From positions 880-64,879 of the forward strand of contig DATLXS010000182.1 of NCBI GenBank assembly GCA_035575675.1: a stretch of 64,000 nt of DNA. Reading direction: 5' to 3'. Below the pieces are notes generated by a model. It saw only the letters and a program-made list of their open reading frames with translations, was not told the origin of the DNA and did not search any database. The translations under genes and the position numbers were made by a program. The stretch comes from Gemmatimonadales bacterium. GTDB taxonomy: Bacteria > Gemmatimonadota > Gemmatimonadetes > Gemmatimonadales > GWC2-71-9. Shown here piece by piece: positions 24,256 to 53,806 of the stretch (its first letter is position 1; each line of letters opens with the position of its first letter).

Positions 24256-24290
24256 GTAGGGGCGCAGCATGCTGCGCCCCTACATTTTTT
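24256..24290 (+). terminator. Rho-independent terminator between convergent genes
   Basis: Perfect palindrome GTAGGGGCGCAGC/ATGC-centred/GCTGCGCCCCTAC (24256-24283) followed by ATTTTTT (24284-24290). Confidence 0.75.
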
Positions 24291-27380: not shown

Positions 27381-28806
27381 AGACCGACCTCTTCATTAAT
27401 AACGAGTGGCGGCCGGCAAGCTCTGGGAAACGCTTCCGCGTCGAGAATCCGGCCACCGAAGAGAACCTGGCCGACGTCGCCCAGGGCGATGCCGCGGACG
27501 TTGACAATGCGGTTCGCGCCGCGAAGACCTGCTTTGAATCGCAAGCGTGGCGGGACATGTCAGGGAGGAAGAGAGGAAAACTCCTCTTTAAGGCGGCGGA
27601 TCTGTTGGAAGCACGGCTCGACGAAGTCGCCCGGCTCGAGACGGCACAGAACGGCAAGACGCTGTTCGAGTCGAAGATCGAGATCGGGATGACGATCAAC
27701 ACGCTGCGCTACTACGCGGGGTGGGCGGATAAGATCGTCGGCGACACGCTGCCGGTCGAAGGCCCGTTCTTGACCTACACCTTGCGCGAGCCGATCGGCG
27801 TCGTTGGCGCGATCGTGCCCTGGAATTTCCCGCTCAACATCGCGAGCTGGAAGTTCGCCCCTGCCCTCGCGGCCGGGTGCACGGTTGTCCTGAAGCCCGC
27901 GTCGGAAACGCCCCTCACGGCCCTGCTCTTCGCCGAGATCGCGCTCGAGGCGGGCCTGCCGCCGGGCGCGTTCAACGTCGTGCCGGGCGGCGGCGCGACG
28001 GCCGGAGCCGCACTCGTGCGGCACCCGGATGTCGACAAGATCTCGTTCACCGGATCGACCGAGGTGGGCCGGCAGGTCATGAAGATGGCCGCCGAGACGA
28101 ACAAGCGCGTCACCATGGAGCTGGGTGGCAAAAGTCCCAACATCATCTTTGCCGACGCCGACCTGAAAGCTGCCGTGCGCGGCGCGCAGACGGGAATCTT
28201 CTACGGCAAAGGCGAAGTGTGCGCTGCCGGATCGCGTCTGTTGGTTGAGAAATCGGTGCATGCGCAGGTGATCGAGCAGCTCGCTGAGGGTGCGAAGAAA
28301 ATGACGCCCGGCGATCCGCTCGATAAAAACACCCGGCTCGGCGCGCTCGTCTCCAGGAAACAGCAGGAGACGGTGCTCTCCTACATCAAGCGCGGTGTGG
28401 ACGAAGGGGCGCAGCTCGTGGCCGGGGGGAAGGCGGCGAAGCCCAACGGCAAGGGCTACTACGTCGAAGCGACCGTGTTCGACGGCGTGCAGCCAGACAT
28501 GACGATCGCGCGCGAAGAGATCTTTGGGCCGGTGCTTGCCGTGCTCACGTTCGACGATTTCGAGCAGGGTGTGAAGCTCGCGAACAACACCATTTACGGT
28601 CTCGCCGCCGGGCTGTGGACGAAGGACATCCAGAAAGCGCACCGCGCCGCCAAGGCGATTCGCGCCGGCACGGTGTGGATCAACTCGTACAACTTCTACG
28701 ACTCCGGCGCGCCCTTTGGCGGGTTTAAAGCATCGGGATTCGGCCGCGATCTCGGCCGCGAGGCGCTCGACGGTTACCTCGAGACCAAGACTGTGTGGGT
28801 CGCCCT

Positions 28807-28810
<4 letters not shown>
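27377..28810 (+). CDS. NAD(P)-dependent aldehyde dehydrogenase
   Basis: 477 aa. ALDH motifs VPWNFPL, FTGSTEVG, MELGGKSP and GEVCAAGSR (catalytic Cys). GTGA overlap with the upstream gene. Confidence 0.9.
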
Positions 28811-29990
<1,180 letters not shown>

Positions 29991-29991
<1 letters not shown>

Positions 29992-35627: not shown

Positions 35628-37738
35628 ACCGGCGGAATGTGGGAATGATGGAACGATGGACTGGACTACTGCTTCTCCTTTCCATCATTCCATCATTCAT
35701 TCCATCATTCCATCTTTCCGCCCAGGAGCCCTTCCCCACCAAGGCACCGGCTCCCAGTCGCCTCCGGCCCGTGCAGTTCCCGCCGTTCCGGGATGTCGCA
35801 CTGCCGAACGGGATGACCCTGCTGCTGGTCGAGAATCACGAGCAGCCGACCCTCTCGGTGAGTCTCAGCTTCCGCGCGGGAACCGCGTACGATCCCGCCG
35901 GCAAAGAAGGGGTCGCGGCGCTGGTCGCGGAGCTGTTGACCAAGGGCACCCCCACGCGCACCGCCGACCAGATCGAGGCCGCGATCGAGGGTGTGGGCGG
36001 GAGCATCGGCGCGAGCACGGGCGACGACTTCCTGACGATCTCGACCGACGTGCTGAGCGATCACGCGGATCTGGCGTTCTCGCTGCTCGGCGATGTGACG
36101 CGACGGGCGACGTACCCCGAGCAGGAGCTGGAGCTCGCGCGCACGCGGTTCCTTTCGTCGCTCGAGGTGGAGCTGTCGCAGGCCGATAATGTCGCCGCGC
36201 GCGCGTTCCAGAAGGAGATTTACGGCCGCAATCCGTACGGCCGAACCACGAGCGTTGCCGCCTACAAGGCGATCACTCGGGACGACGTCGTGGGGTTCGC
36301 GGCGCGGCGGCTGCGTCCCGGTGGCGCGCTCCTCGTGATCTCAGGCGATATCACCCTGCCGCAAGCCCGCGCGTTCGCGACCGAGGCGTTCGGCACCTGG
36401 CGCGGCGCCGCGGCGCCGACGCCCGCATTTCCCGCGGTCCCCACCAAACGCGGCACGGACATCCTGCTCGTCAACCGGCCGGGCTCCGTGCAGTCGAATA
36501 TCGTGATCGGCAATACGACCTTCCTCCCGACCGACAGCGGCTACTACCCGGCGCGGATCGCGACGCACGTCTTGGGCGGTGGCAGTGATTCCCGCCTGTT
36601 CATGATCCTGCGCGAGCAGAAGAGCTGGACGTACGGCTCCTACGCCGCGCTGCGGCGCAGTCGCGGCATGGGATTCTGGCAAGCGACATTCGAGGGCCGC
36701 ACCGAGGTCACCGACAGCGCGCTGACGGAGCTGCTCCATCAGATCGACCGGATACGCACCGAGACCATTTCCGACAGTGAGCTCGTTGCGGCGAAGGGGT
36801 TCCTCGTCGGCTCCTTCCCGCTGACGATCGAGACGCCGCGCCAAATCGCGCAGGTCGTCACGTCGGCGCGGCTGCTCGGGCTCGGCGCGGACTACATCCA
36901 GCGCTATCGCGAACGCCTCACGGCGGTGAGTGCCCTGCGCGCGCGCGCCGCGGCGCAGCGCGTCTTCAAACGCGATGCGCTCACGATCGTGGTGGTCGGC
37001 GACGCCAAGGCGCTATACGACAAGCTCAAGGCGATCGCGCCCGTGCGACTCGTGGATGTCGGCGGCAAGTCGATGGATCCGGCCGACCTGAATCCGACGG
37101 GCGGGCCGGTGGCGTTCGATCGCAGTCAGATCGTGGCGCACAGCGACAGCTTCCAGGCACTGGTGCAAGGCAACGCACTGGGGGGTCAGACCTCGAAGGT
37201 TGTCGTCACCGGTGATTCGATCGTCTATACCGAATCGACCGTGATTGGTGCGTTCGTCCAGCAACAGTCGACGGCCGTGCTGAACAGCGACCTGTCGATG
37301 CGTCGGACCGATCAGACCAGCGTGGTTCAGGGCCAGCACACGGAGATCCATCTCGTTTACGCGGGCGGGCGAGTGAAGGGCACGAGCCAGACGCCGCAGC
37401 CCGGCGGTCCGAAGACGATCTCGGTCGACACGACGGTTACCGCGGGGACGATCGACGACAACGCGCTCGCGGTCCTGTTGCCCGCGCTGGCGCTCGAGCA
37501 AGGCAAAACCTTCAACCTGAACGTCTTCTCGTCCGGCGAAGGCGTGACCAAGGTCGTCAGCGTGAAGGTCGCCGGCGTCGAGAACGTCGCGGTGCCCGCG
37601 GGGACCATCCCGGCCTACCGGCTCGAGTTGTCCGGGATGCAGCTGCCGCTCGTGATGCATGTCAGCCAGCAGGCGCCGCGGCGGGTCGTGCGGGTTGCGC
37701 CGACGGGAGCGCCGCTGGTGTTTGAACTCGTGAAATAA
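35624..37738 (+). CDS. M16-family peptidase, non-catalytic partner with ~250-aa C-terminal extension
   Basis: 704 aa. M16 fold with no HxxEH motif. ATGA overlap with the upstream M16 gene. The first ~33 codons are encoded by the inverted repeat at 35631-35722. Confidence 0.8.
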   Translation: MNRRNVGMMERWTGLLLLLSIIPSFIPSFHLSAQEPFPTKAPAPSRLRPVQFPPFRDVALPNGMTLLLVENHEQPTLSVSLSFRAGTAYDPAGKEGVAALVAELLTKGTPTRTADQIEAAIEGVGGSIGASTGDDFLTISTDVLSDHADLAFSLLGDVTRRATYPEQELELARTRFLSSLEVELSQADNVAARAFQKEIYGRNPYGRTTSVAAYKAITRDDVVGFAARRLRPGGALLVISGDITLPQARAFATEAFGTWRGAAAPTPAFPAVPTKRGTDILLVNRPGSVQSNIVIGNTTFLPTDSGYYPARIATHVLGGGSDSRLFMILREQKSWTYGSYAALRRSRGMGFWQATFEGRTEVTDSALTELLHQIDRIRTETISDSELVAAKGFLVGSFPLTIETPRQIAQVVTSARLLGLGADYIQRYRERLTAVSALRARAAAQRVFKRDALTIVVVGDAKALYDKLKAIAPVRLVDVGGKSMDPADLNPTGGPVAFDRSQIVAHSDSFQALVQGNALGGQTSKVVVTGDSIVYTESTVIGAFVQQQSTAVLNSDLSMRRTDQTSVVQGQHTEIHLVYAGGRVKGTSQTPQPGGPKTISVDTTVTAGTIDDNALAVLLPALALEQGKTFNLNVFSSGEGVTKVVSVKVAGVENVAVPAGTIPAYRLELSGMQLPLVMHVSQQAPRRVVRVAPTGAPLVFELVK
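35631..35722. repeat. Inverted pair of GGAATGA-type arrays with GGCGGAA/TTCCGCC termini
   Basis: Left arm GGCGGAATGTGGGAATGATGGAACGATGGA (35631-35660), a 20-nt spacer, and right arm TCCATCATTCCATCATTCATTCCATCATTCCATCTTTCCGCC (35681-35722). Confidence 0.85.
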
Positions 37739-37751
37739 CAGGAGATCCCTC

Positions 37752-39158
37752 ATGCGATATCTGTCGACCAGGCTGGCGATGCCGGTGCTCCTCGCCGGCT
37801 GCGCCTCAGCGGGTGCACGGACGACGACCGCGGCCGCACCCCCACAACCCGCCGCGCCAGCCGCGGCGGCCACACAGGATGCGGGCATCGGGCCCCAGTA
37901 TCCATCGACCTATCAGCGCCATCCCAATCCTCCGGTGCTGATCCGCAATGCCACGATCATGACGGCGGCGGGACAGGAGATTCAGGGCGGCTCAATTCTG
38001 TTCCGTGACGGCCGGATCGTCGCGGTGGGCGCGAACGTCACGGCGCCGACCGACGCGACGATCGTCGACGGCACGGGCAAGTGGGTGACGCCGGGCGTGA
38101 TCGACACGCACTCGCACATCGGCGTCTACGCCGCACCCGGCACGTTCGGGGAATCGGACGGCAACGAGGCCACGAGCCCGGTGACGGCCGAGGTGTGGGC
38201 GGAGCATTCGTTCTGGCCGCAGGATCCGCAGATCCCGCTCGCCATCGCGGGCGGTGTCACGACGATCCAGGCGCTCCCGGGGTCCGCGAATCTCATCGGC
38301 GGACGCAGCGCGGTGTTGAAGCTCGTCCCGGCGCGCTCGGTGCAAGAGATGAAGTTCCCCGGCGCGCACTACGGGCTGAAAATGGCGTGCGGTGAGAATC
38401 CCAAGCGCGTGTATGGAAACCGCGGCGGTCCGTCGACGCGGATGGGCAACATGGCCGGCTACCGCGCGGCATTCATCGCCGCTCAAGCCTATCGCCAGAA
38501 GTGGGACAAGTGGAACAAGGATCACCAGGGCGATCCGCCGGAGCGCAATCTGCGGAACGAGTCGCTCGCCGAGGTGCTGCGCGGCAACATCTACGTGCAG
38601 AACCACTGCTACCGCGCGGACGAAATGATGCAGATGCTCGATCTCGCCCATGAGTTCGGGTTCAAGATCCGCTCGTTCCACCACGCGGTGGAGGCGTACA
38701 AGATCGCCGACGTGCTGGCGCGCGAGGGCACGGCGGTGTCGATCTGGTCGGACTGGTGGGGTTTCAAAGAAGAGGCGATGGACGGGATCTACGAGAACGC
38801 CGCGCTGGTGCAGCAGGCGGGTGGGCGCGTGGTGATCCACTCCGATGACGCATCCGGCATTCAACGGCTCAATCAGGAGGCGGCAAAGGCGATGTATCAC
38901 GGCCGGCGCGCCGGAATTCCCATCACGCGGGACCAGGCGGTGCGCTGGTTCACCGCCAACCCGGCCTGGGTGCTCGGCCTCGACTCGATCGTCGGGTCGC
39001 TCGAGCCCGGCAAGATGGCCGATGTCGTGCTCTGGTCGGCCGATCCGCTTTCCGTCTATGCCCGCGCGATTCAGGTCTACAACGACGGCTGGCTCGTCTA
39101 CGACCGCAACGATCCGGCGCATCAACCAAGAACCGACTTCACGCTGGGGCAGCCATGA
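37752..39158 (+). CDS. Amidohydrolase-family lipoprotein (metal-dependent, HxH intact)
   Basis: 468 aa. Lipobox LLAGC. TPGVIDTHSHIG metal motif and a C-terminal ...PGKMADVVLWS pattern. Confidence 0.8.
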   Translation: MRYLSTRLAMPVLLAGCASAGARTTTAAAPPQPAAPAAAATQDAGIGPQYPSTYQRHPNPPVLIRNATIMTAAGQEIQGGSILFRDGRIVAVGANVTAPTDATIVDGTGKWVTPGVIDTHSHIGVYAAPGTFGESDGNEATSPVTAEVWAEHSFWPQDPQIPLAIAGGVTTIQALPGSANLIGGRSAVLKLVPARSVQEMKFPGAHYGLKMACGENPKRVYGNRGGPSTRMGNMAGYRAAFIAAQAYRQKWDKWNKDHQGDPPERNLRNESLAEVLRGNIYVQNHCYRADEMMQMLDLAHEFGFKIRSFHHAVEAYKIADVLAREGTAVSIWSDWWGFKEEAMDGIYENAALVQQAGGRVVIHSDDASGIQRLNQEAAKAMYHGRRAGIPITRDQAVRWFTANPAWVLGLDSIVGSLEPGKMADVVLWSADPLSVYARAIQVYNDGWLVYDRNDPAHQPRTDFTLGQP

Positions 39159-40363
39159 TCGCCTTCCTGCTTGCCCAGACGATCGCGATCACCGGGGGCA
39201 CGGTGTATCCGGTTTCGGGTCCGAAGATCGAAAACGCCACGGTGCTGATCCGTGATGGCCGGATTGCCGCCGTCGGAGCGACCGTGGCCGTGCCGGCAGG
39301 TGCGACGCGCATCGATGCATCCGGCAAGTGGGTAACACCCGGCTTCATCGATGGCGCGGGTCAGATGGGATTGCGGGAGATTGGCGCGGTCGACAATACG
39401 AGTGAGTACACCTTCCGGGGCAACGACGTCGCGGCTGCCTTCAACGTGCTCGAAGGCGTCAATCCGGCGTCCGCGCTCATCGCCGTGAACCGGATGGAAG
39501 GGATCACCACCACCCTCGCGGTGCCCAACGGCAATCTGATTTGGGGCCAGGCGGTGTTGATCGATCTCGATGGCGCGACGATCGAGGCGATGCGGGTGAA
39601 ATCACCCACCGCGATGGTCGCCGATTTGAGCGAAGGGTCCAAGGCCGCGGGCGGCGGCTCCCGCGCGGGCGTGGCGCAACGGCTGCGCCGCGTACTCGAT
39701 GACGCGCGCGAATACGCGACGCGGCGTGCCGATTATCGCCGCGCGCAGATCCAGCCGCTCAGCGCGAGCGCGGCGGACCTCGAGGCGCTGCAGCCGGTGC
39801 TGCGTGGTGAGCTGCCGCTGCTCGTGGTTGCGAACCGCCGCAGCGATATCGAGACCGCGCTGCGCATCGCCAAGGAGTACAAGCTGCGGCTGATTCTCGC
39901 GGGGGTCGCCGAGGGGTGGATGATCGCGAGCGAGATCGCGGCGGTGGGGGTGCCGGTGCTGGTCGAGCCGCTCGACAACATTCCGAGCTACGACGCGCTC
40001 GGCATCCGCTACGAGAACGCGCCGTTGCTCGCGAAGGGCGGCGTGAAGGTCGCGCTGATGGAGACGGCGACCGAGAATACCAGAGACCTGCGGCAGCAGG
40101 CAGGCAACGCCGTTGCGAACGGGATGCCGTGGGAGCAGGCGTTGCGGGCCGTGACGCTCACACCCGCCGAGATCTTTGGCGTGGCGGATCGGTACGGATC
40201 ACTGGACGCGGGGAAAGTTGCGAACGTCGTCGTCTGGACCGGTGATCCCTTCGATTTCTCGACGGGGGTCGAGCACGTATTCATACGGGGCAAAGACATT
40301 CGGTTGCGGAGCAGACAGACGGAGTTGCTGGAGAGGTATAAGACGCTGCCGCCGAAGTACTAG
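39155..40363 (+). CDS. Amidohydrolase-family paralog lacking the HxH metal motif
   Basis: 402 aa. Same fold (TPGFIDGAGQMG where HxH is expected; ..GKVANVVVWTGDP). ATGA overlap with the upstream paralog. No signal peptide from the only available start. Confidence 0.7.
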   Translation: MIAFLLAQTIAITGGTVYPVSGPKIENATVLIRDGRIAAVGATVAVPAGATRIDASGKWVTPGFIDGAGQMGLREIGAVDNTSEYTFRGNDVAAAFNVLEGVNPASALIAVNRMEGITTTLAVPNGNLIWGQAVLIDLDGATIEAMRVKSPTAMVADLSEGSKAAGGGSRAGVAQRLRRVLDDAREYATRRADYRRAQIQPLSASAADLEALQPVLRGELPLLVVANRRSDIETALRIAKEYKLRLILAGVAEGWMIASEIAAVGVPVLVEPLDNIPSYDALGIRYENAPLLAKGGVKVALMETATENTRDLRQQAGNAVANGMPWEQALRAVTLTPAEIFGVADRYGSLDAGKVANVVVWTGDPFDFSTGVEHVFIRGKDIRLRSRQTELLERYKTLPPKY

Positions 40364-40776
40364 GCGGTAACAGGCGGGATTGGGCGGTAACGGGCGGTAG
40401 GTGGCGAACCCACCTGCCGCTTGTTTTTGTCGATTGCGGCATACAATCGCCACACCAACGTCCCTGCATGATTCCGCAGGCGTTCAATCGTTTGCCACGC
40501 CTCGTCTGACATCAACTCCAGGTCCTTGGCGAGTCTCAACGCGACAGATAACTCAGACAATGAACCGAGAGCGATGTCGAGGTAACGCCTGAACTCGGCG
40601 GATCCCCGTTTCGCCGATCCTTCTGCGATGTTGGCGACGACAGAGAAAGCCGCACGTCGGGACTGCGAAGTTAGTCCGTAGAGCTCATGCTTTGGGAAAG
40701 TCGCGGTAATCCGATAAACATCCAGAGTCAGTTCGTAAGAAAGCTTCCATGCTTGAAAGCGCTCATAGGGGAGCAT
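40360..40776 (-). CDS. Four-helix-bundle protein (23S rRNA intervening-sequence protein / Avd-like family)
   Basis: 138 aa. FQAWKLSYELTLDVY..FPKHELYGLTSQSRRAAFSVVANIAEGSAKRGSAEFRRYLDIALGSLSEL matches the TIGR02436/PF05635 pattern. The C-terminal tail (..GSPPTARYRPIPPVTA) is read from array A. Visibly lower G+C than its neighbours. Confidence 0.85.
   Translation of the reverse strand: MLPYERFQAWKLSYELTLDVYRITATFPKHELYGLTSQSRRAAFSVVANIAEGSAKRGSAEFRRYLDIALGSLSELSVALRLAKDLELMSDEAWQTIERLRNHAGTLVWRLYAAIDKNKRQVGSPPTARYRPIPPVTA
40363..40429 (+). repeat. GGCGGTAnnn 10-bp iteron array ending in a terminator hairpin (array A)
   Basis: GGCGGTAACA GGCGGGATTG GGCGGTAACG GGCGGTAGGT starts on the last base of the TAG stop. 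The last unit forms stem GCGGTAGGTGG-CGAAC-CCACCTGCCGC followed by TTGTTTTTG. Confidence 0.9.
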
Positions 40777-40844
40777 CAGTGGATCGTAGCGTTCAGTCTG
40801 ACAAGCGGGTTACTCAATCGAACGCATGTGGGCACAAGAAAATT

Positions 40845-40878
40845 CCGCCTGTTGCCGCCTTTTGCCGCCCATTACCGT
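40845..40878 (-). repeat. 10-bp iteron array B (C-rich on + strand)
   Basis: CCGCCTGTTG CCGCCTTTTG CCGCCCATTA CCGTC. On the minus strand it reads TGA-GACGGTAATG GGCGGCAAAA GGCGGCAACA GGCGG, starting directly after the stop of the 40880-41680 gene. Confidence 0.85.
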
Positions 40879-40879
40879 C

Positions 40880-41680
40880 TCAGCGTCTCGACCAGACGAG
40901 TATCGCTCCGCAAGGACTCAAATAACCTGAGTACTGGACGGGTACACCCTCGGGTCCGGGATATACTTCCAGCGCTTCGATATTGAATGGGTTGACGAGG
41001 TCATCGAGGCTGAGTCCACCGCTAGCCGTGCCGCCGGGCTGCAGCAAGACACCGTCGAAAACGACGCTGGGGTTACATTTTCCGCGAAAGAACATCGTGT
41101 TCGCGGCTCGCATGGTGACTGTACATTGCAAGCCGGGACCGCCTTGTGAAGGGCCCCGCTGCTGTCCCCCGCAAGTGACGCGCACTCCAGACATCCCATG
41201 AAGTAGGTCAGTAAGGTGGAGGGGATCCCGCTTGTCGATTTCGTCGCGGGTGAGGAAATGTCCAAACCCCTCCTGTCTGCGTCTGTAAAACCCGGCGTCC
41301 GCCAAGTATGGCAACCGTCTCTCGATTTCCTTCGCTACGACCGTAACGGTGTCGAGAGTTATCGGGTTCGAAGGCAAGCTCAGCGATACGCGTGCCGTGA
41401 AGGCTGAACTGAAAAGAAAGGGTTTGCTTAGACTGATCGGATAACCGATCCTACTGATTAGCAGGCGATACTCACCGAGGCGCGGAATGCTGAAGGTGAA
41501 CTGACCGTCCGAGCTTGTGACTAGAGACTTCATCGCCGTGCCCGCGCTATCGAGGAGAAGGATGCGTGCACCGACGATGGGTTTTCCGGACACACTGTCC
41601 AGCACCGTCCCGGCGAGGACCTGTGCTTCAGCGGGATGCGCGAGCAATCCGAGTGTCAGCACGCAAACGGAGAGTCGCAT
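40880..41680 (-). CDS. CarboxypepD_reg-like + TonB-plug-like domain protein (no barrel)
   Basis: 266 aa. Signal peptide MRLSVCVLTLGLLAHPAEAQ, LAGTVLDSVSGKPIVGARILLLD..SDGQFTF..GEYRLLISRIGY, then plug-like LTDLLHGMSGVRV..VVFDGVLL..NIEALEVYPGP. Lower G+C than its surroundings. Confidence 0.6.
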   Translation of the reverse strand: MRLSVCVLTLGLLAHPAEAQVLAGTVLDSVSGKPIVGARILLLDSAGTAMKSLVTSSDGQFTFSIPRLGEYRLLISRIGYPISLSKPFLFSSAFTARVSLSLPSNPITLDTVTVVAKEIERRLPYLADAGFYRRRQEGFGHFLTRDEIDKRDPLHLTDLLHGMSGVRVTCGGQQRGPSQGGPGLQCTVTMRAANTMFFRGKCNPSVVFDGVLLQPGGTASGGLSLDDLVNPFNIEALEVYPGPEGVPVQYSGYLSPCGAILVWSRR

Positions 41681-41698: not shown

Positions 41699-41764
41699 GA
41701 AAAAGCGGCAGGGTCCGCAAACCCCTACCGCCCATTACCGCCTTGTACCGCCTGTTACCGCCTA
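41699..41764 (-). repeat. 10-bp iteron array C plus terminator hairpin downstream of rpmA
   Basis: The minus strand reads TAG-GCGGTAACAG GCGGTACAAG GCGGTAATGG GCGGTAGGG-GTTTGCGGA-CCCTGCCGC-TTTTT. The first 17 nt are identical to array A (TAGGCGGTAACAGGCGG) on the opposite strand. Confidence 0.9.
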
Positions 41765-42040
41765 GTTGTTCGCCGCCGCTTTCACTGCAGCCGGATACAC
41801 ACTCACCTGAAACCGCTGCTTGTTCTTGTGCTCGAACTTCACGTGACCGTCGATGGTCGTGAACAGCGTATCGTTCGCACCGCGGCGCACGTTCTTGCCG
41901 GGATGGAACTTGGTGCCGCGCTGAATGACGATGATGGTCCCGGCCCGCACGAATTCCCCGCCGAACCGCTTCACGCCGAGGTACTTCGGATTCGAGTCGC
42001 GCCCGTTGCGCGAGGAGCCGACGCCCTTCTTATGAGCCAT
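41762..42040 (-). CDS. rpmA: 50S ribosomal protein L27
   Basis: 92 aa. [39 protein letters not shown]. Confidence 0.97.
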
Positions 42041-45443: not shown

Positions 45444-45487
45444 GACGGTAAGGGACGGTAAAGAAGCGACGGTAAAGGACGGTAAGG
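45444..45487. repeat. GACGGTAAnG iteron array, single arm
   Basis: GACGGTAAGG GACGGTAAAGAAGC GACGGTAAAG GACGGTAAGG fills the recQ-stop to acyl-CoA-dehydrogenase-start spacer. C-rich in the sense of both flanking genes. Confidence 0.85.
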
Positions 45488-45488
45488 G

Positions 45489-46616
45489 TCACACCTCGCC
45501 GAAGTGTTGGAGAATGATCGCGCGGTGGTTCCGGCGCGCCTCGACGTACCGCCGCATCGCGGGCGCAATGTTGCCCCACGCGAGATCCTCCCTTCGCCAC
45601 AACACCAGACATTCGGCTGCCCTGCCGTCCCTGCCGCCCCTGCCGGCCTCTTGGTAGTAGGCCTCCAACGTGGGCGGGGGACCCCAATGCAGCACCTGCC
45701 GAACGTCCGGCTTGTCGATGCCCATGCCGAACGCGCTCGTCGCGACGATCACACGCACCTGATCGGTGAGGAACGCCCGTAATACACGCCGGCGCATGCC
45801 GGGACTGAGACCGGCGTGATAGGGGGCCGCGCGCACACTCGACCGCAGGAGCGCGCGCGCGACGAGCTCGGTCAGGCGGCGGGTTGGCGTGTAAATGAGC
45901 GACGCTCCTGCCCCGGTGCGGACGCGCTGGCGGATCGCCGCGAAGCGCTCGCGATCATCTCGCACGCGACAGACACGCAAGTCGAGATTGGGACGATCGA
46001 ACGACGTCACCACGACCTCGGCATCTGGCATGCGCAGTACGTGCAGGATGTCGGTGCGAGCGGCCGGAGTCGCGCTTCCCGTCAGGGCAATCGTCGGGGG
46101 CCGTCCGAGCGCCGCGCGGAACACGCCGAGGCGCCGGTAGACCGGCCGGAATTCGTTGCCCCATTCGGCGATGCAGTGCGCCTCGTCGATCGCGAGCAGC
46201 GACACCCGCGTGCCGGCTGCTACGAGGCGTCGCGTCAGCGATGCCAATCGCTCCGGCGCGCAGTACAGCAGCGCGAGCCGCCCCGCGGTCGCCGCGTCCA
46301 GGATGGTGCGCCGCTGGGTGGCATCGAGCTGGCTGTTCACGTAGGCGGCCGCGATGCCCCGGCGTCGCAGCGCGCCGACTTGATCCTGCATCAGCGAGAT
46401 CAAGGGCGACACGACGAGCGTCAGGCCGGCGTCGAGCAGCGCGGGGACCTGGTAGCAGAGCGACTTCCCCGCCCCAGTGGGGAGTACGGCGAGGACGTTC
46501 CGGCCGGCGAGCAGCGGGCCCAGCACTCTGAGCTGATGGACGCGGAAGCGGGCGTGACCGAACCGTTCCTTGAGGATTGTGCGCGCGGCCTCGAGTCCCA
46601 CGGTGCAGGTCGGCAT
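45489..46616 (-). CDS. RecQ-family helicase core, lacking Zn-binding/WH/HRDC domains
   Basis: 375 aa. Motifs LAVLPTGAGKS, DEAHC, TATA-like LTGSATP and YYQEAGRGGRDG. Ends ..AIILQHFGEV* exactly where RecQ proteins begin the Cys4 zinc cluster. Confidence 0.8.
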   Translation of the reverse strand: MPTCTVGLEAARTILKERFGHARFRVHQLRVLGPLLAGRNVLAVLPTGAGKSLCYQVPALLDAGLTLVVSPLISLMQDQVGALRRRGIAAAYVNSQLDATQRRTILDAATAGRLALLYCAPERLASLTRRLVAAGTRVSLLAIDEAHCIAEWGNEFRPVYRRLGVFRAALGRPPTIALTGSATPAARTDILHVLRMPDAEVVVTSFDRPNLDLRVCRVRDDRERFAAIRQRVRTGAGASLIYTPTRRLTELVARALLRSSVRAAPYHAGLSPGMRRRVLRAFLTDQVRVIVATSAFGMGIDKPDVRQVLHWGPPPTLEAYYQEAGRGGRDGRAAECLVLWRREDLAWGNIAPAMRRYVEARRNHRAIILQHFGEV

Positions 46617-48837: not shown

Positions 48838-49581
48838 ATGCCCAAGGTGCACTGTTCGCTGTGTAACGCTCCCGTGGAGGGCCGCACGCTCGCGTCCCCG
48901 CAGAAGTTGGAAAACCGCATCATCGACCTGATAAAAAAAGACCGGCCGGAATGGGAAGGGACGCGTGGCATCTGCGCCAACTGCCTCGAGACCTATCGCG
49001 CCAAGAAGTTCGTGACCTATCTCGAAGCCGAGTATCAGAAGCTGTCGGAGCTCGAGCACTCAGTGGTCTCGAAGATCACGCGCCGCGGGCGGGTCAGTAA
49101 GCTCGTGCATCAGGACATGGAGACGTCGATGACGTTCGGCGAGCACGTGGCCGACAAGGTGGCGCAGTTTGGGGGAAGCTGGCGCTTCATCGGGCTCTTT
49201 GGAGGCATCCTGCTCGTGTGGATGGTGGTGAACGCCTGGGTGCTCGCGACCCATCCCTTCGACCCCTACCCCTTCATTCTCTTGAACCTCGTGCTGTCGA
49301 CGCTCGCGGCGCTCCAGGCGCCGGTGATCATGATGAGCCAGAACCGCCAGGCGCACAAAGACCGGATGCAGGCGAATCAGGATTACGAGATCAACTTGAT
49401 GGCGGAGATTGAAATCCGGGATCTACACGACAAGCTGGATTCGCTGCGATTCAAGCAATGGCACGAGCTGTGGCACATTCAAAAGCGGCAAATCGAACTG
49501 CTCGAGCATCTCTGCGCGAAGGGTGCGGATCCCGAGCTTAAGGCTCCCGCGCCGAGTCCCTATGTGCCCCCTGAACTCTGA
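48838..49581 (+). CDS. DUF1003-family membrane protein with N-terminal zinc ribbon
   Basis: 247 aa. AGGAGA RBS at 48825-48830. CSLC..CANC ribbon, then FGGSWRFIGLF..PYPFILLNLVLS..APVIMMSQNRQ..D (DUF1003 core). Confidence 0.75.
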   Translation: MPKVHCSLCNAPVEGRTLASPQKLENRIIDLIKKDRPEWEGTRGICANCLETYRAKKFVTYLEAEYQKLSELEHSVVSKITRRGRVSKLVHQDMETSMTFGEHVADKVAQFGGSWRFIGLFGGILLVWMVVNAWVLATHPFDPYPFILLNLVLSTLAALQAPVIMMSQNRQAHKDRMQANQDYEINLMAEIEIRDLHDKLDSLRFKQWHELWHIQKRQIELLEHLCAKGADPELKAPAPSPYVPPEL

Positions 49582-49652
49582 CGGTAGGCAAGGCGACGGT
49601 AGATGAAACGACGGTAGGTAAGGCGACGGTAGATAAAACGACGGTAGATACC
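49579..49652 (+). repeat. GACGGTAG 15-bp iteron array (left arm)
   Basis: T-GACGGTAGGCAAGGC GACGGTAGATGAAAC GACGGTAGGTAAGGC GACGGTAGATAAAAC GACGGTAGATACC. It begins inside the TGA stop of the DUF1003 gene and shows an alternating 30-bp higher-order repeat. Confidence 0.9.
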
Positions 49653-49692
49653 ATTTTGAGTTGTGGTTGATCGCCTCCCGAGATACTCCCTC

Positions 49693-50061
49693 ATGCTCGC
49701 GCATGAGAGAATCCACGCTTGGAAGTTGTGTCACGAGCTGGTGCTGGCTGTATACGATGCAACGACATCGTTTCCTAAACATGAACTCTACGGGTTGACC
49801 TCCCAAGCTCGGCGCGCCGCTTTTTCTGCGGCGGTCAACATTGTCGAAGGCTCCGCCAAGCGTGGCCCCGCCGAATTTCGACGATTCCCGGATATGAGTG
49901 TTGGTTCGCTTGCGGAGCTCGCCTACACGTTGCGTGTGGCGAAGGACCTGGGGTTCATTGATGACGAGCGCTGGCGGTCATTAGAACAACGTCGAAGACA
50001 AGCAGGCATGATGACGTGGAGACTCTACTCGGCGGTTGCGAGAGCGGCGAGAAGAGTGTGA
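49693..50061 (+). CDS. Four-helix-bundle protein (23S rRNA intervening-sequence protein / Avd-like family), paralog 2
   Basis: 122 aa from ATG 49693 (MLAHERIHAWKLCHELVLAVY..FPKHELYGLTSQARRAAFSAAVNIVEGSAKRGPAEFRRF). Aligns end to end with the 40360-40776 protein at roughly 60% identity by eye. Confidence 0.85.
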   Translation: MLAHERIHAWKLCHELVLAVYDATTSFPKHELYGLTSQARRAAFSAAVNIVEGSAKRGPAEFRRFPDMSVGSLAELAYTLRVAKDLGFIDDERWRSLEQRRRQAGMMTWRLYSAVARAARRV

Positions 50062-50063
50062 CA

Positions 50064-50132
50064 CTTACCGTCGCCTTATCTACCGTCCTTTACCGTCGTA
50101 TTATCTACCGTCGTATTATCTACGGTCGTCTC
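50064..50132 (-). repeat. CTACCGTC iteron array (right arm, inverted)
   Basis: CTTACCGTC GCCTTATCTACCGTC CTTTACCGTC GTATTATCTACCGTC GTATTATCTACGGTC. The array ends 1 nt before the TCA (minus-strand TGA stop, 50133-50135) of the 50133-50450 gene. Confidence 0.9.
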
Positions 50133-50450
50133 TCACCCCGCATCTTTCCAGTCAATCGCATAGCTGCGCCCACATTCGTGGCACTTGGCGTCCTTGCGAT
50201 TCTCGGGGACGACGGTCCGCGCGTGACATCCGGGGCACACCAGGTGTGGCTGGCGCACCACACTCCAGGCGCTGGGTCGCTCGCTCCGAATCTCGAGATC
50301 CGCTTTTGGGATCCGGATCTCCACGTGGTGCACATCCAGCACCACGAAGTCCTTGGGCGGATTTTCGACGACGCGATACCAGGCGCCGCGCCGGAGTCCC
50401 TGTCCTTCCGCACGATCACCGCGACTACGAGCCCAACCGATGTCAGCCAT
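50133..50450 (-). CDS. Hypothetical protein with C-terminal zinc ribbon
   Basis: 105 aa from MADIGW (ATG 50450, 8-nt overlap with the upstream GroES-like gene). C-terminal CPGC..(13)..CHEC. Confidence 0.45.
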   Translation of the reverse strand: MADIGWARSRGDRAEGQGLRRGAWYRVVENPPKDFVVLDVHHVEIRIPKADLEIRSERPSAWSVVRQPHLVCPGCHARTVVPENRKDAKCHECGRSYAIDWKDAG

Positions 50451-52918: not shown

Positions 52919-53013
52919 GACGGTAAGGGACGGTAGGTGAAACGACGGTAAGGGACGGTAAACCCTTACCGTCGTTTACCGTCGTAGTACCTACCGTCGC
53001 ATTACCTACCGTC
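52919..53013. repeat. Back-to-back inverted GACGGTA arrays with no cargo ('empty' hairpin)
   Basis: GACGGTAAGG GACGGTAGGTGAAAC GACGGTAAGG GACGGTAAAC | CCTTACCGTC GTTTACCGTC GTAGTACCTACCGTC GCATTACCTACCGTC. It sits between convergent genes, and the TAG stop of the methyltransferase (53006-53008) lies inside the array. Confidence 0.9.
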
Positions 53014-53806
53014 GATTCTCCAGGCTCACCGTCCGTATCCACTCGGCGGGATCCGTCGGCGCGTGAGGTACCAGCCCCCGCCACACCTTGTAGCGCAGCT
53101 TCCGCAAGCCGGTCAGCGCACGCCCATCCGCAAACGGAATCAGTCGCCGCACTCGTCGCGCCAGGGCCAGCCGCGCGGCGCGCCACCGCGCGCCGTCGCC
53201 CGGCCGATATTGCGCCCACCCGATCGAGCCGCAGAGACCCGCAGGACCGAATTGGTCTGAGGCGAGCAGCTCCTCGGCAAACACGCGCACCGGCCCCTCA
53301 AAGCTGTGCAGTACGTCATGCATCGCGACGATCGCACCCGGCGCCAGGTGCGGCCGAAAGAGGTCGATATCCTCCTTCGCGCCGCGGTACGTGTGGTCGC
53401 CGTCGATCCACAGGAACCGGATCGACCGAGTCCACCCCTGCGCGAGGTCACGGGAATAGGCGCGATGCGCCTCGACAGTTCGCTCGACGCCTGCGTCGCG
53501 CAGCGACGCCTGGAAGTCATCCCACGACGATTGCTGCGAGCCATGTCCAAAGTCTGTGACGGCGGGGGCGGAGTGCGGATCGACGCTTACGACGGGGCCG
53601 AGGCCATAGTGCTGCGCGATGGAGGCCAGCCCAACGGTGGACTTTCCCTTGTAGCTCCCGATCTCGAGGATCGTCCCGCGGGCGGGGGCGCACGCCGCCG
53701 CGAGCGCCAGGAACCGCGCTTCGCGCTCCGTTAAAAACCCCGGAGCGGCCCGGACGCGTGTCCAGGCCTCCTCAACGGCTTGTCCAAGATCAGACGGCGT
53801 GGTCAG
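53006..53806 (-). CDS. Class I SAM-dependent methyltransferase (Methyltransf_24-like)
   Basis: GTILEIGSYKGKSTVGLA (motif I), VVSVDPH and LWIDGDHTY. Homology begins near FLTEREARFL. There is no ATG/GTG/TTG in frame between 54079 and the domain. CTG at 53806 would make a CTGA overlap with the bacilliredoxin stop. Confidence 0.65.
   Translation of the reverse strand: MTTPSDLGQAVEEAWTRVRAAPGFLTEREARFLALAAACAPARGTILEIGSYKGKSTVGLASIAQHYGLGPVVSVDPHSAPAVTDFGHGSQQSSWDDFQASLRDAGVERTVEAHRAYSRDLAQGWTRSIRFLWIDGDHTYRGAKEDIDLFRPHLAPGAIVAMHDVLHSFEGPVRVFAEELLASDQFGPAGLCGSIGWAQYRPGDGARWRAARLALARRVRRLIPFADGRALTGLRKLRYKVWRGLVPHAPTDPAEWIRTVSLENRR

Follow-up and report, generated by a model that had tools for sequence, protein, structure and literature searches.

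The window analysed here is a 64,000-nucleotide stretch of a soil-metagenome contig (DATLXS010000182.1) from a Gemmatimonadales bacterium, and the elements in question are two short G-rich tandem arrays in it, A and C, which follow the stop codons of two genes that face each other, an amidohydrolase gene and rpmA. Two open reading frames (ORFs) lie between these genes on the minus strand. The first, PF05635 gene 1, belongs to the 23S_rRNA_IVP family of Avd-like four-helix-bundle proteins (hereafter 4HB) and sits as cargo between arrays B and A. Its ORF meets no stop codon before the putative terminator (40360-40430, minus strand); it runs on across the antisense strand of array A and its hairpin, which adds about 20 residues (...KNKRQVGSPPTARYRPIPPVTA), and it ends in a CTAG that also holds the amidohydrolase TAG. 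The second cargo, between arrays C and B, has only domains of a TonB-dependent receptor and may be a truncated gene carried along. The coordinates of these features, and of the other arrays of the window, are collected in Table 1.

Table 1. Genes, tandem arrays and predicted hairpins of the window.
Feature	Position	Strand	Details
Amidohydrolase gene	39155..40363	+	ORF and Pfam PF01979/PF07969; stop TAG 40361-40363, its G the first base of array A
PF05635 gene 1 (23S_rRNA_IVP, four-helix-bundle, Avd-like)	40360..40776	-	Pfam E = 1.7e-30; ORF; also called on source contigs
Array A	40363..40404	+	four units GGCGGTAACA, GGCGGGATTG, GGCGGTAACG, GGCGGTAGGTGG; 10-nt period
Predicted terminator hairpin of A	40389..40428	+	core stem 40394-40404 / 40410-40420, one U-G pair; loop CGAAC 40405-40409
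Array B	40840..40879	-	sense array right after TGA 40880-40882; units GACGGTAATG, GGCGGCAAAA, GGCGGCAACA, GGCGGAATTT
266-aa ORF, CarboxypepD_reg and Plug domains only	40880..41680	-	fails the GC3 (third codon position GC) coding filter; variably present among relatives
Predicted terminator hairpin of C	41700..41731	-	stem GCGGTAGGG(G) / CCCTGCCGC (41705-41713), one U-G pair; TTTTT 41700-41704
Array C	41722..41762	-	four units GGCGGTAACA, GGCGGTACAA, GGCGGTAATG, GGCGGTAGGGG after rpmA TAG 41762-41764
rpmA (ribosomal protein L27)	41762..42040	-	stop codon fused to array C
Array D	45444..45488	+	GACGGTAAGG type; spacings 10, 14, 10 nt
Array E	49580..49650	+	GACGGTAGATAAAAC type, 15-nt period, 5 units; first unit overlaps TGA of DUF1003 gene
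PF05635 gene 2 (122 aa)	49693..50061	+	Pfam E = 5.6e-27; cargo between arrays E and F
Array F	50066..50129	-	sense array after TGA 50133-50135 of convergent 110-aa gene; 15-nt flavour like E
Array pair G	52919..53014	.	four sense units, 4-nt loop, four antisense units; convergent genes either side, cargo-free

Arrays A and C share one anatomy. In both, the G of the TAG stop codon opens a GGCGGTA unit, four GGCGGTAnnn units follow one another at an exact spacing of 10 nt, the last unit doubles as the 5' half of a hairpin, and a T-run comes next. The plus strand at 40361-40429 reads TAG GCGGTAACAG GCGGGATTGG GCGGTAACGG GCGGTAGGTGG cgaac CCACCTGCCGC TTGTTTTTG; the second unit is degenerate (GCGGGA), the last pairs with CCACCTGCCGC across the CGAAC loop, and the T-run TTGTTTTT occupies 40421-40428. 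The reverse complement of 41699-41764 reads TAG GCGGTAACAG GCGGTACAAG GCGGTAATGG GCGGTAGGGG tttgcgga CCCTGCCGC TTTTT. The initial annotation had described this succession of stop codon, tandem units, hairpin and T-run as a module duplicated on the two strands, with a single G-U pair in each hairpin. The duplication is confirmed, the G-U pairs are seen in the sequence, and the order of the parts is real and recurs in relatives, as the rpmA end described below illustrates. Folding of hairpin A yields -35.5 kcal/mol with 16 predicted pairs, 11 of them in the core (z = -3.2; none of 200 shuffled sequences folded as well), and hairpin C forms 11 bp at -22 kcal/mol. The U-G pair of each hairpin holds only on the strand of the upstream gene and becomes an A-C mismatch on the other strand. 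Two features of a Rho-independent terminator are present at both arrays, namely a stable GC-rich hairpin (with z = -0.2 for C) and a U-tract placed directly 3' of the stem on the transcribed strand (TTGTTTTT for A, TTTTT for C). A generic terminator scan of the window gave no enrichment (8 found, 10.4 expected from shuffles); it caught C and missed A. The motif GCGGTANNNG occurs 17 times in the window as compared with 7.5 +/- 2.6 times in shuffles, none of 100 reaching 17, and seven of the 17 occurrences sit in A and C at exact 10-nt spacing.

The junction at which the amidohydrolase gene meets convergent rpmA is hypervariable. When metagenomes were scanned with the amidohydrolase, 80 orthologous loci with a protein identity of 86-98% were obtained. 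In 28 of these loci the two genes face each other with nothing inserted, a PF05635 gene lies between them in at least 22, both a PF05635 gene and the CarboxypepD_reg ORF are present in 4 (the type of the window), the CarboxypepD_reg ORF stands alone in 7, and other insertions occur too. Counting an array as present when it has at least two units, we find one within 70 nt after the amidohydrolase stop (...LPPKY*) in 42 of 64 distinct sequences, 38 of these 42 having their first unit at a distance of -1 to +1 nt from the stop codon. Likewise, an array follows the rpmA stop in 37 of 48 distinct sequences (mode 3-4 units), 19 of them with the first unit at the same distance of -1 to +1 nt. Where a co-directional gene lies downstream of rpmA, an array is present in 28 of 30 distinct sequences and a T-run as well in 25, though the hairpins at the rpmA end have at least four unrelated sequences among relatives; this combination argues for a conserved terminator function with turnover of its sequence. 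Some relatives are array-free at the junction and have only a small GAGGCCGCC hairpin (L167, L180, L192, L198, L200, L201). Others carry different flavours of the unit at the same site, GGCGGTAACAG (10 nt), GGCGGTAGGAG (10 nt), GGCGGCAAYGG (10 nt), GGCGGCAGG (9 nt) and GGCGGCGAAGG (10 nt), and what stays constant through the flavours is GRCGG with a purine-rich tail. At this one junction the period is 9, 10 or 15 nt and the core GGTA, GGCA or GGCG, or there is no array at all, while the flanking protein stays 86-98% identical; orthologous junctions keep their arrays in related genomes as unit number, period and core change. Given this turnover at the same site, neither the TA with its stop codon nor the 10-bp phase is essential, and a fixed phased site for one conserved DNA-binding protein does not fit.

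A and C are members of a family spread over the order. A three-unit pattern (GRCGGTANNNGRCGGTANNNGRCGGTA), for which about 2-6 chance matches are expected by our own calculation in the genome collection of 596 Gb that was searched, matched more than 119 loci, and among the matches listed 102 of 119 (86%) lie in metagenome-assembled genomes (MAGs) of Gemmatimonadota, mostly Gemmatimonadales. The excess of GCGGTANNNG over shuffles, together with a number of family-wide matches far beyond expectation, excludes a chance origin. In the census, made up of the matched loci listed and the window, the unit consensus is G-R-C-G-G-T-A-R-R-R, arrays of three to four units are commonest, and 463 of 523 unit spacings equal 10 nt, a count biased by a search pattern that favours this spacing. 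The broader consensus of the family is G-R-C-G-G-Y-R-R-R-R, which in the window appears as GGCGGTAnnn. Neighbouring arrays are polar: a G-rich array is followed by a C-rich inverted one in 66 pairs and the order is reversed in 4, and the spacers between such arms fall into three classes of 5-60 nt, about 100-140 nt and about 420-475 nt. Arrays are also fused to stop codons. Of the 115 arrays that follow a coding-like ORF on their own strand, 48 provide its stop codon as the TAR of unit 1, 2 or 3, 16 overlap or abut it and 18 lie within 1-5 nt of it, so that in 82 altogether the stop codon is inside the array, touches it or is at most 5 nt away. These stop-codon and polarity counts include five loci from outside Gemmatimonadota (L086, L090, L093, L099, L104), to minor effect. 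With a period of 10 nt the TAR recurs in all three frames and the antisense array is open in every frame; an essential role as an all-frame stop was considered and rejected, since stop-free GGCA and GGCG flavours occupy the same sites.

Seven arrays (A-G) were found in the window by tandem-repeat and motif scans and by direct reading. All are intergenic or at gene boundaries, and the five beyond A and C (B, D, E, F, G), which the initial annotation had missed, have a (G/A)CGGTA core like those two. For the cargo-free pair G the folding energies of the two strands are -65 and -63 kcal/mol (z = -8.5), and the TAG of the gene to its right (53006-53008) lies inside a unit. Array D stands between the recQ stop codon (45489-45491, minus strand) and the start of an acyl-CoA dehydrogenase gene (45431, minus strand), antisense to both genes and 13 nt upstream of the start codon on the non-coding strand. 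Its possible partner is a GGCA-type array, CCCTGCCGY three times, at 45620-45645 inside recQ; first dismissed as a coding coincidence, it was kept because the orthologous locus L067 (7736-7961) has the same layout. Rfam at gathering thresholds returned one tRNA over the window, nothing for the arrays and no rRNA.

Both PF05635 genes of the window lie between inverted arms, and the same holds in relatives, whose DNA was available as pieces of 8-20 kb. In the Gemmatimonadales loci that were fetched, spacers of about 450 nt invariably turn out to be PF05635 genes (L048, L067, L076), L067 and L076 being syntenic orthologs of the two PF05635 loci of the window; in L088 the PF05635 gene is bracketed by inverted arrays of another 15-nt unit. 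Orthologs of gene 2 (L076, L202-L205) are always bracketed by arrays. Four of these loci, L202-L205, were chosen by way of the 4HB protein and not of the arrays, and arrays lie on both sides of the gene in 4 of 4; in three of these four syntenic relatives (L202-L204) no comparable arrays occur elsewhere in the 20 kb examined. Since the four loci are orthologous, their bracketing is one event. In accordance, the three context look-ups with 4HB, which all gave the ortholog of the E/F locus, were counted as one evolutionary event; the 4HB homolog search returned only close Gemmatimonadales relatives, with homologs of 122 aa. The only solved homolog is Xanthomonas XCC0516 (PDB 2GSC, E = 5e-20).

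The arms are predicted to pair across the gene that they enclose. When 40355-40885 is folded on the minus strand, B pairs with the antisense of A across the 4HB ORF in both the minimum free energy and the centroid structure (z = -3.2), and on the plus strand of 49575-50135 E pairs with F, likewise in both structures, in a long stem of tens of base pairs that encloses the 4HB ORF (z = -5.5). The arms are also related to each other and to the gene between them. To the left and right of the 4HB gene at the amidohydrolase/rpmA junction they share 0.337 of their 7-mers, as compared with 0.159 when arms are shuffled across loci (0 of 1000 reach the observed value). Within a flavour class the identity of the 4HB proteins is 86-96%, from class to class it is 48-68%, and the amidohydrolase alongside keeps an identity of 86-98% over all of them. 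A GACGGTA core accompanies the E/F-type protein in every case, and GGCGG(T/C)A the types at the first junction. These sequence relationships are suggestive of arms and gene being exchanged as one cassette at the amidohydrolase/rpmA junction, or of protein and repeat co-evolving.

We consider it probable, at roughly 0.6, that A and C are terminator-building arms of a polar, hairpin-forming family of tandem decamers that also supplies the arms around PF05635 cassettes. A and C are two copies of this Gemmatimonadales-wide G-rich family. The G-rich array starts at, or itself supplies, the stop codon of the incoming gene, and the unit nearest the spacer would pair with a C-rich unit into a hairpin. 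Where there is a single antisense unit followed by a T-run, as in A and C, the product would be a one-way Rho-independent terminator, A terminating the amidohydrolase operon and C terminating rplU-rpmA. Where both arms are long, as in G, a two-way hairpin would stand between convergent genes. The spacer can moreover hold cargo, one PF05635 gene between A and B and another between E and F, and the ORF is predicted to be enclosed by a long stem of the paired arms, a layout known from PF05635-bearing intervening sequences (IVSs) of 23S rRNA. On this model the hairpins would terminate or stabilise transcripts and the arrays would grow and shrink by slippage; arms and 4HB gene may be exchanged together, and the long stem may, by analogy, be processed like an rRNA intervening sequence.

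Several results weigh against this interpretation. A T-run follows only 7 of 85 long inverted pairs, so that most members of the family are not canonical intrinsic terminators. Hairpin C taken alone folds no better than its shuffles, and arrays B and D, which lack a partner nearby, show no structure of their own. The variable positions of the two arms do not covary in a register-specific manner, their identity being 0.56 in register and 0.61 when shifted by one unit; they match by flavour and not by register, and we therefore do not claim base-pair covariation as evidence. The co-variation of flavour with protein type is suggestive and not a proof, as it comes from about 4-5 independent classes, each counted as one event, of phylogenetically related sequences. 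Some pairs of arms enclose host coding sequence. At an orthologous DUF1800/DUF1501 junction in seven genomes (L027 3150-3480, L060, L061, L063, L106, L110, L117) a sense array follows the DUF1800 stop, its first unit overlapped by the TGA, and the loop contains the ribosome-binding site, the ATG and the twin-arginine translocation (TAT) signal peptide of DUF1501; the antisense array is then read in frame as a YRPLPSxTxxYRP linker after that signal peptide. In the window as in L067, the 3' end of recQ lies between array D and the GGCA-type array within the gene. Neither the DUF1501 linker nor the bracketing of recQ is explained by a model of terminators or cassettes alone.

The arrangement of a PF05635 gene between inverted short repeats is not confined to Gemmatimonadota and is also found in Xanthomonadales, in Azospirillum and in many cyanobacteria. 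In Xanthomonas (L206 1420-1875) and Pseudoxanthomonas (L208 1485-1945) accB and accC have a PF05635 gene of the XCC0516/2GSC family between them; GGGAATC-type heptamers come after the TGA of accB, and CCCATTC-type heptamers extend from the 4HB stop codon to the ATG of accC. The GGGAATC repeat is the one studied by Rehm et al. (PMC4692102), whose paper on the heptamers does not mention the PF05635 gene. A tblastn search of plasmids with a 4HB query yielded 23 records, mostly from Nostocales, and in 9 of the 12 inspected inverted tandem arrays of 7-8-nt units abut the start and stop codons of the 4HB ORF, the unit differing from lineage to lineage: TCAGAAT / ATTCTGA on a Trichormus plasmid, TCAGGAG / CTGACTC on plasmids of N. 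punctiforme and Aulosira, AGGAGATA / ATCTCCTA on a Picosynechococcus plasmid between cas10 and cmr3, and GAGGACG / GTCTTCT on an Azospirillum plasmid. Inverted arrays of 7-8-nt units also surround the 4HB gene on plasmids of Geminocystis, Stanieria and Calothrix and, between cas6 and cas4, on one of Anabaena 90. The exceptions are Pseudanabaena, with direct arrays, and two Nostoc 7120 plasmid copies with a downstream array only, one of them having an insertion sequence (IS) element upstream. A stretch of Trichormus plasmid C served as control: over its 49 kb and 40 genes, period-7 arrays with at least four copies occur only as the two that flank the 4HB gene. On cyanobacterial and Azospirillum plasmids such bracketing is counted at 10 loci (L209, L211-L213, L215-L218, L220, L221), where the PF05635 gene stands between other genes and sometimes inside a cas operon (cas10-cmr3, cas6-cas4).

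A wider proposal would tie these observations together. In Gemmatimonadota, Xanthomonadales, Azospirillum and several orders of cyanobacteria, which make at least four distant lineages, PF05635 genes might ride compact cassettes with inverted arms of short tandem repeats, the Gemmatimonadales decamers, the Xanthomonas GGGAATC repeats and the short tandemly repeated repetitive (STRR) sequences of cyanobacteria being gene-less relatives or cognate sites, and each 4HB type recognising or travelling with its own flavour. We put this forward tentatively, as a conjecture that may well turn out to be wrong.

Four other explanations of the arrays deserve consideration. The units could be DNA-level protein-binding sites, phased at 10 bp on one face of the helix and possibly bound by the PF05635 protein encoded between the arms, for autoregulation or for control across the genome. 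Avd, the homolog found in diversity-generating retroelements, is a nucleic-acid-binding pentamer. It is essential for retrohoming, while PF05635 itself is functionally uncharacterised (PMC10053308; bioRxiv 10.1101/2024.02.27.582315). A binding site would account for the strict 10-nt spacing of many arrays (again the pattern-biased 463 of 523), for an invariant core with a variable tail, for an Avd/PF05635-family gene adjoining the arrays, for flavours that co-vary with the 4HB type, and for the three of four syntenic relatives whose strong arrays lie only around the 4HB gene in the 20 kb examined. We nonetheless regard it as unlikely: period and core differ among close relatives at one orthologous site, the bracketing units of 7-8 nt in other phyla mean that helical phasing is not a shared property, a structural role directly explains why the arms are always inverted and complementary, and the G-U pairs point to RNA. 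Given that a gene of a nucleic-acid-binding type lies between the arms, some protein binding may occur all the same, the neighbouring 4HB protein being the obvious candidate. The initial annotation had favoured iteron-type, helically phased sites, and this part of it is not supported, in view of the varying period and core and the lack of a replicon context and further because the arrays are usually G-rich/C-rich inverted pairs folding into long hairpins, whose antisense arms can be translated inside genes.

No better placed is the view that the arrays are a neutral by-product. Replication slippage would duplicate the 5' half of a terminator stem; copies on the 5' side would be harmless whereas 3' copies would part the stem from its U-tract, and stop codons would abut the arrays only through minimal intergenic space. 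In accordance with such a process, unit number differs among near-identical relatives (3 as compared with 4 GCGGCAGGG units, L126 to L128), the flavour of the array is that of the stem, the arms show no register-specific covariation, and the array-free relatives at the junction have a small hairpin only. Slippage, however, accounts for the variation in unit number and not for the rest: independent events would not yield a GRCGG core common to hundreds of unrelated junctions in many genomes, the modal copy number is 3-4 and not a decay from 1, arms persist within coding sequence, and PF05635 genes are bracketed in four distant lineages by a unit of their own in each, so that neither the shared core nor the cross-phylum cassette layout is explained. 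As a full account of the arrays it appears doubtful.

Improbable, and somewhat more so, is a third possibility, selfish elements similar to repetitive extragenic palindromic (REP) sequences or MITEs (miniature inverted-repeat transposable elements), spread by an enzyme acting in trans such as a transposase of the REP-associated tyrosine transposase (RAYT) type; the arrays with cargo would represent a seemingly autonomous form, and gene-less hairpins would be their miniature derivatives. It would explain the high density (7 arrays in 64 kb), the extragenic placement at 3' ends, and cargo that is present, absent or replaced at one junction among close relatives. The units contain GTAG or GTAA, the former being known as the head motif of REP sequences; moreover, a perfect palindrome of 28 nt, of the form GTAG...CTAC and distinct from the arrays, recurs exactly in the window and 23 loci. 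Yet no transposase lies near any array among the genes examined, the units are non-palindromic 10-nt tandem repeats unlike REP, the arrays occupy orthologous positions across species, and arms that flank essential host coding sequence, as in DUF1501, cannot stem from one insertion. Least probable are G-quadruplexes (G4s), two-tetrad structures of the G-rich strand that would influence transcription or translation where genes end, a role proposed for Xanthomonas GGGAATC: GG tracts number about two per unit, G4 formation is predicted for the GGCGGTAGGAG flavour (-19.4 as compared with -1.9 kcal/mol) and analogous heptamers form G4s in vitro (PMC4692102), but the flavours of the window (GGCGGTAACAG, GACGGTAAGG and the 15-mers) are not predicted to do so, and in most arrays a nearby complementary C-rich arm would compete through a hairpin.

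The closest described phenomenon is the class of G-rich heptamers of Xanthomonas (GGGAATC) and Nostoc (GGGGAYT, of the cyanobacterial STRR class), which follow stop codons or overlap with them, occur as convergent pairs and differ in length from one species to another (Rehm et al. 2015, PMC4692102), their function being given as unknown. Like the decamers, they are short G-rich tandem units, often about four, with a strong non-coding bias; many form convergent inverted pairs able to adopt stem-loops, and the same intergenic site is occupied in related species with length and sequence changed. The stop-codon association of the decamers (82 of 115), their mainly non-coding location, their convergent pairs and their shared sites all agree with that class. 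The decamers differ in a unit of 10 nt (sometimes 9 or 15) with a GRCGG core, as opposed to 7 nt with a G3-4 tract, in their occurrence in Gemmatimonadota, in the weak G4 potential of the window flavours (G4s being predicted for the GGAG flavour only), and in a last unit that is part of a hairpin with a T-run. Owing to the unit length and the G4 difference we regard the decamers as a variant of the Xanthomonas/STRR class and do not count them as members. The claim in the initial annotation that such a module had not been described thus holds in part: stop-codon heptamers of this kind were known (PMC4692102), whereas our literature search brought up no paper on repeats of Gemmatimonadota, on the decamer family or on PF05635 genes flanked by repeats.

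Each of the other known systems shares some of these properties. With the PF05635-bearing IVSs of 23S and 16S rRNA the window has in common a 23S_rRNA_IVP-family ORF in the loop of a long stem, here predicted (B with A, E with F), made of complementary flanks in a transcribed region. It differs in that the elements lie between protein-coding genes and not in an rRNA helix, the host transcript being an mRNA 3' or intercistronic region, and in that the arms are tandem arrays of short units. PF05635 is functionally uncharacterised and encoded in rRNA IVSs in the existing literature as well (bioRxiv 10.1101/2024.02.27.582315; PMC10053308). With Rho-independent terminators A and C share the GC-rich hairpin and T-run directly downstream of a gene; here, by contrast, the 5' half of the stem is the last tandem copy, the array is fused to the stop codon, and most members of the family have no T-run. 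With REP sequences and bacterial interspersed mosaic elements (BIMEs) the decamers share abundance, restriction to a lineage, an extragenic place at gene 3' ends, hairpin formation, alternating orientation and positions conserved between relatives. REP units are imperfect palindromes of roughly 20-40 nt, unlike the non-palindromic tandem decamer, and no RAYT gene occurs among the genes examined (64 kb here, 8-20-kb pieces of relatives). With plasmid and phage iterons, which are about 17-22 bp long, the 10-nt decamers share direct repetition at roughly helical spacing. Membership in the plasmid type does not hold, in view of the context and of a period and core that vary: no origin or rep gene is seen at the arrays of the window, whose neighbours are the amidohydrolase gene, rpmA/rplU, the PF05635 gene and the CarboxypepD_reg fragment, the sites are many chromosomal gene ends, copies are inverted, and a conserved unit and spacing suited to in-phase binding are missing. 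The 38 matches to viral contigs in IMG/VR (L222-L259) were set aside as unrelated repeats, (GGCGGTACTT)n and (GGCGGTATAG)n, with no 4HB gene there. (GGCGGTACTT)n stands in 3 to 12 copies upstream of a conserved gene in one group of related phage contigs and (GGCGGTATAG)n in an AT-rich group; both look like true phage iterons or operators, and the (GGCGGTACTT)n arrays differ from the Gemmatimonadales family in the composition of their tails and in context.

The decamer family, spread over an order of uncultured soil bacteria, enlarges the small group of G-rich tandem repeats placed on stop codons, and as its units are visibly part of terminator hairpins, a concrete and testable role is offered for this class of repeats. 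More important, in our judgement, is the link between the repeat class and PF05635, a large family known only from rRNA intervening sequences and, as the accessory protein Avd, from diversity-generating retroelements, and with no function assigned outside the latter. The recurrence of the layout in distant phyla, with a unit of its own in each, and the tracking of 4HB type by flavour at one chromosomal junction open both questions, that of the repeats and that of the protein family, to simple experiments. There are consequences for annotation too, as stop codons supplied by repeats, antisense arms serving as signal-peptide linkers and ORFs running through terminators affect gene calls in these genomes.

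A few further repeats were noted. Four Nitrospiraceae MAGs (L040, L046, L086, L099) carry decamer arrays of GACGGTAAAG type upstream of a conserved stretch, ...GGTTTCGAGGTTTTTCGCGGGGTT, and these may be an unrelated conserved non-coding element. In the window, a stop-free flavour forms an in-gene array, (GGCGGCGAAG) x3.6 at 29589-29624, inside the ORF 28795-29991 (plus strand); the same flavour makes up intergenic arms at the amidohydrolase/rpmA junction of some relatives. A second kind of inverted tandem array in coding sequence spans 35634-35719, where (GGAATGAT)n is followed 20 nt on by (ATCATTCC)n in the signal-peptide region (MNRRNVGMMERW...SIIPSFIPSFHL) of the second of two M16 peptidase genes, after the overlapping stop codon of the first. 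The perfect 28-nt palindrome mentioned above, GTAGGGGCGCAGCATGCTGCGCCCCTAC, lies at 24256-24283, 31 nt past the TAG of a gene, and is followed by ATTTTTT. Palindromic as REP units are, it coexists with the arrays in the window and looks like a REP-like standard terminator. The identical 28-mer is found in 23 related loci; some amidohydrolase/rpmA junctions have it next to array units or in the place that arrays take in other relatives, and GTAGGGG is common to the palindrome and the array units.

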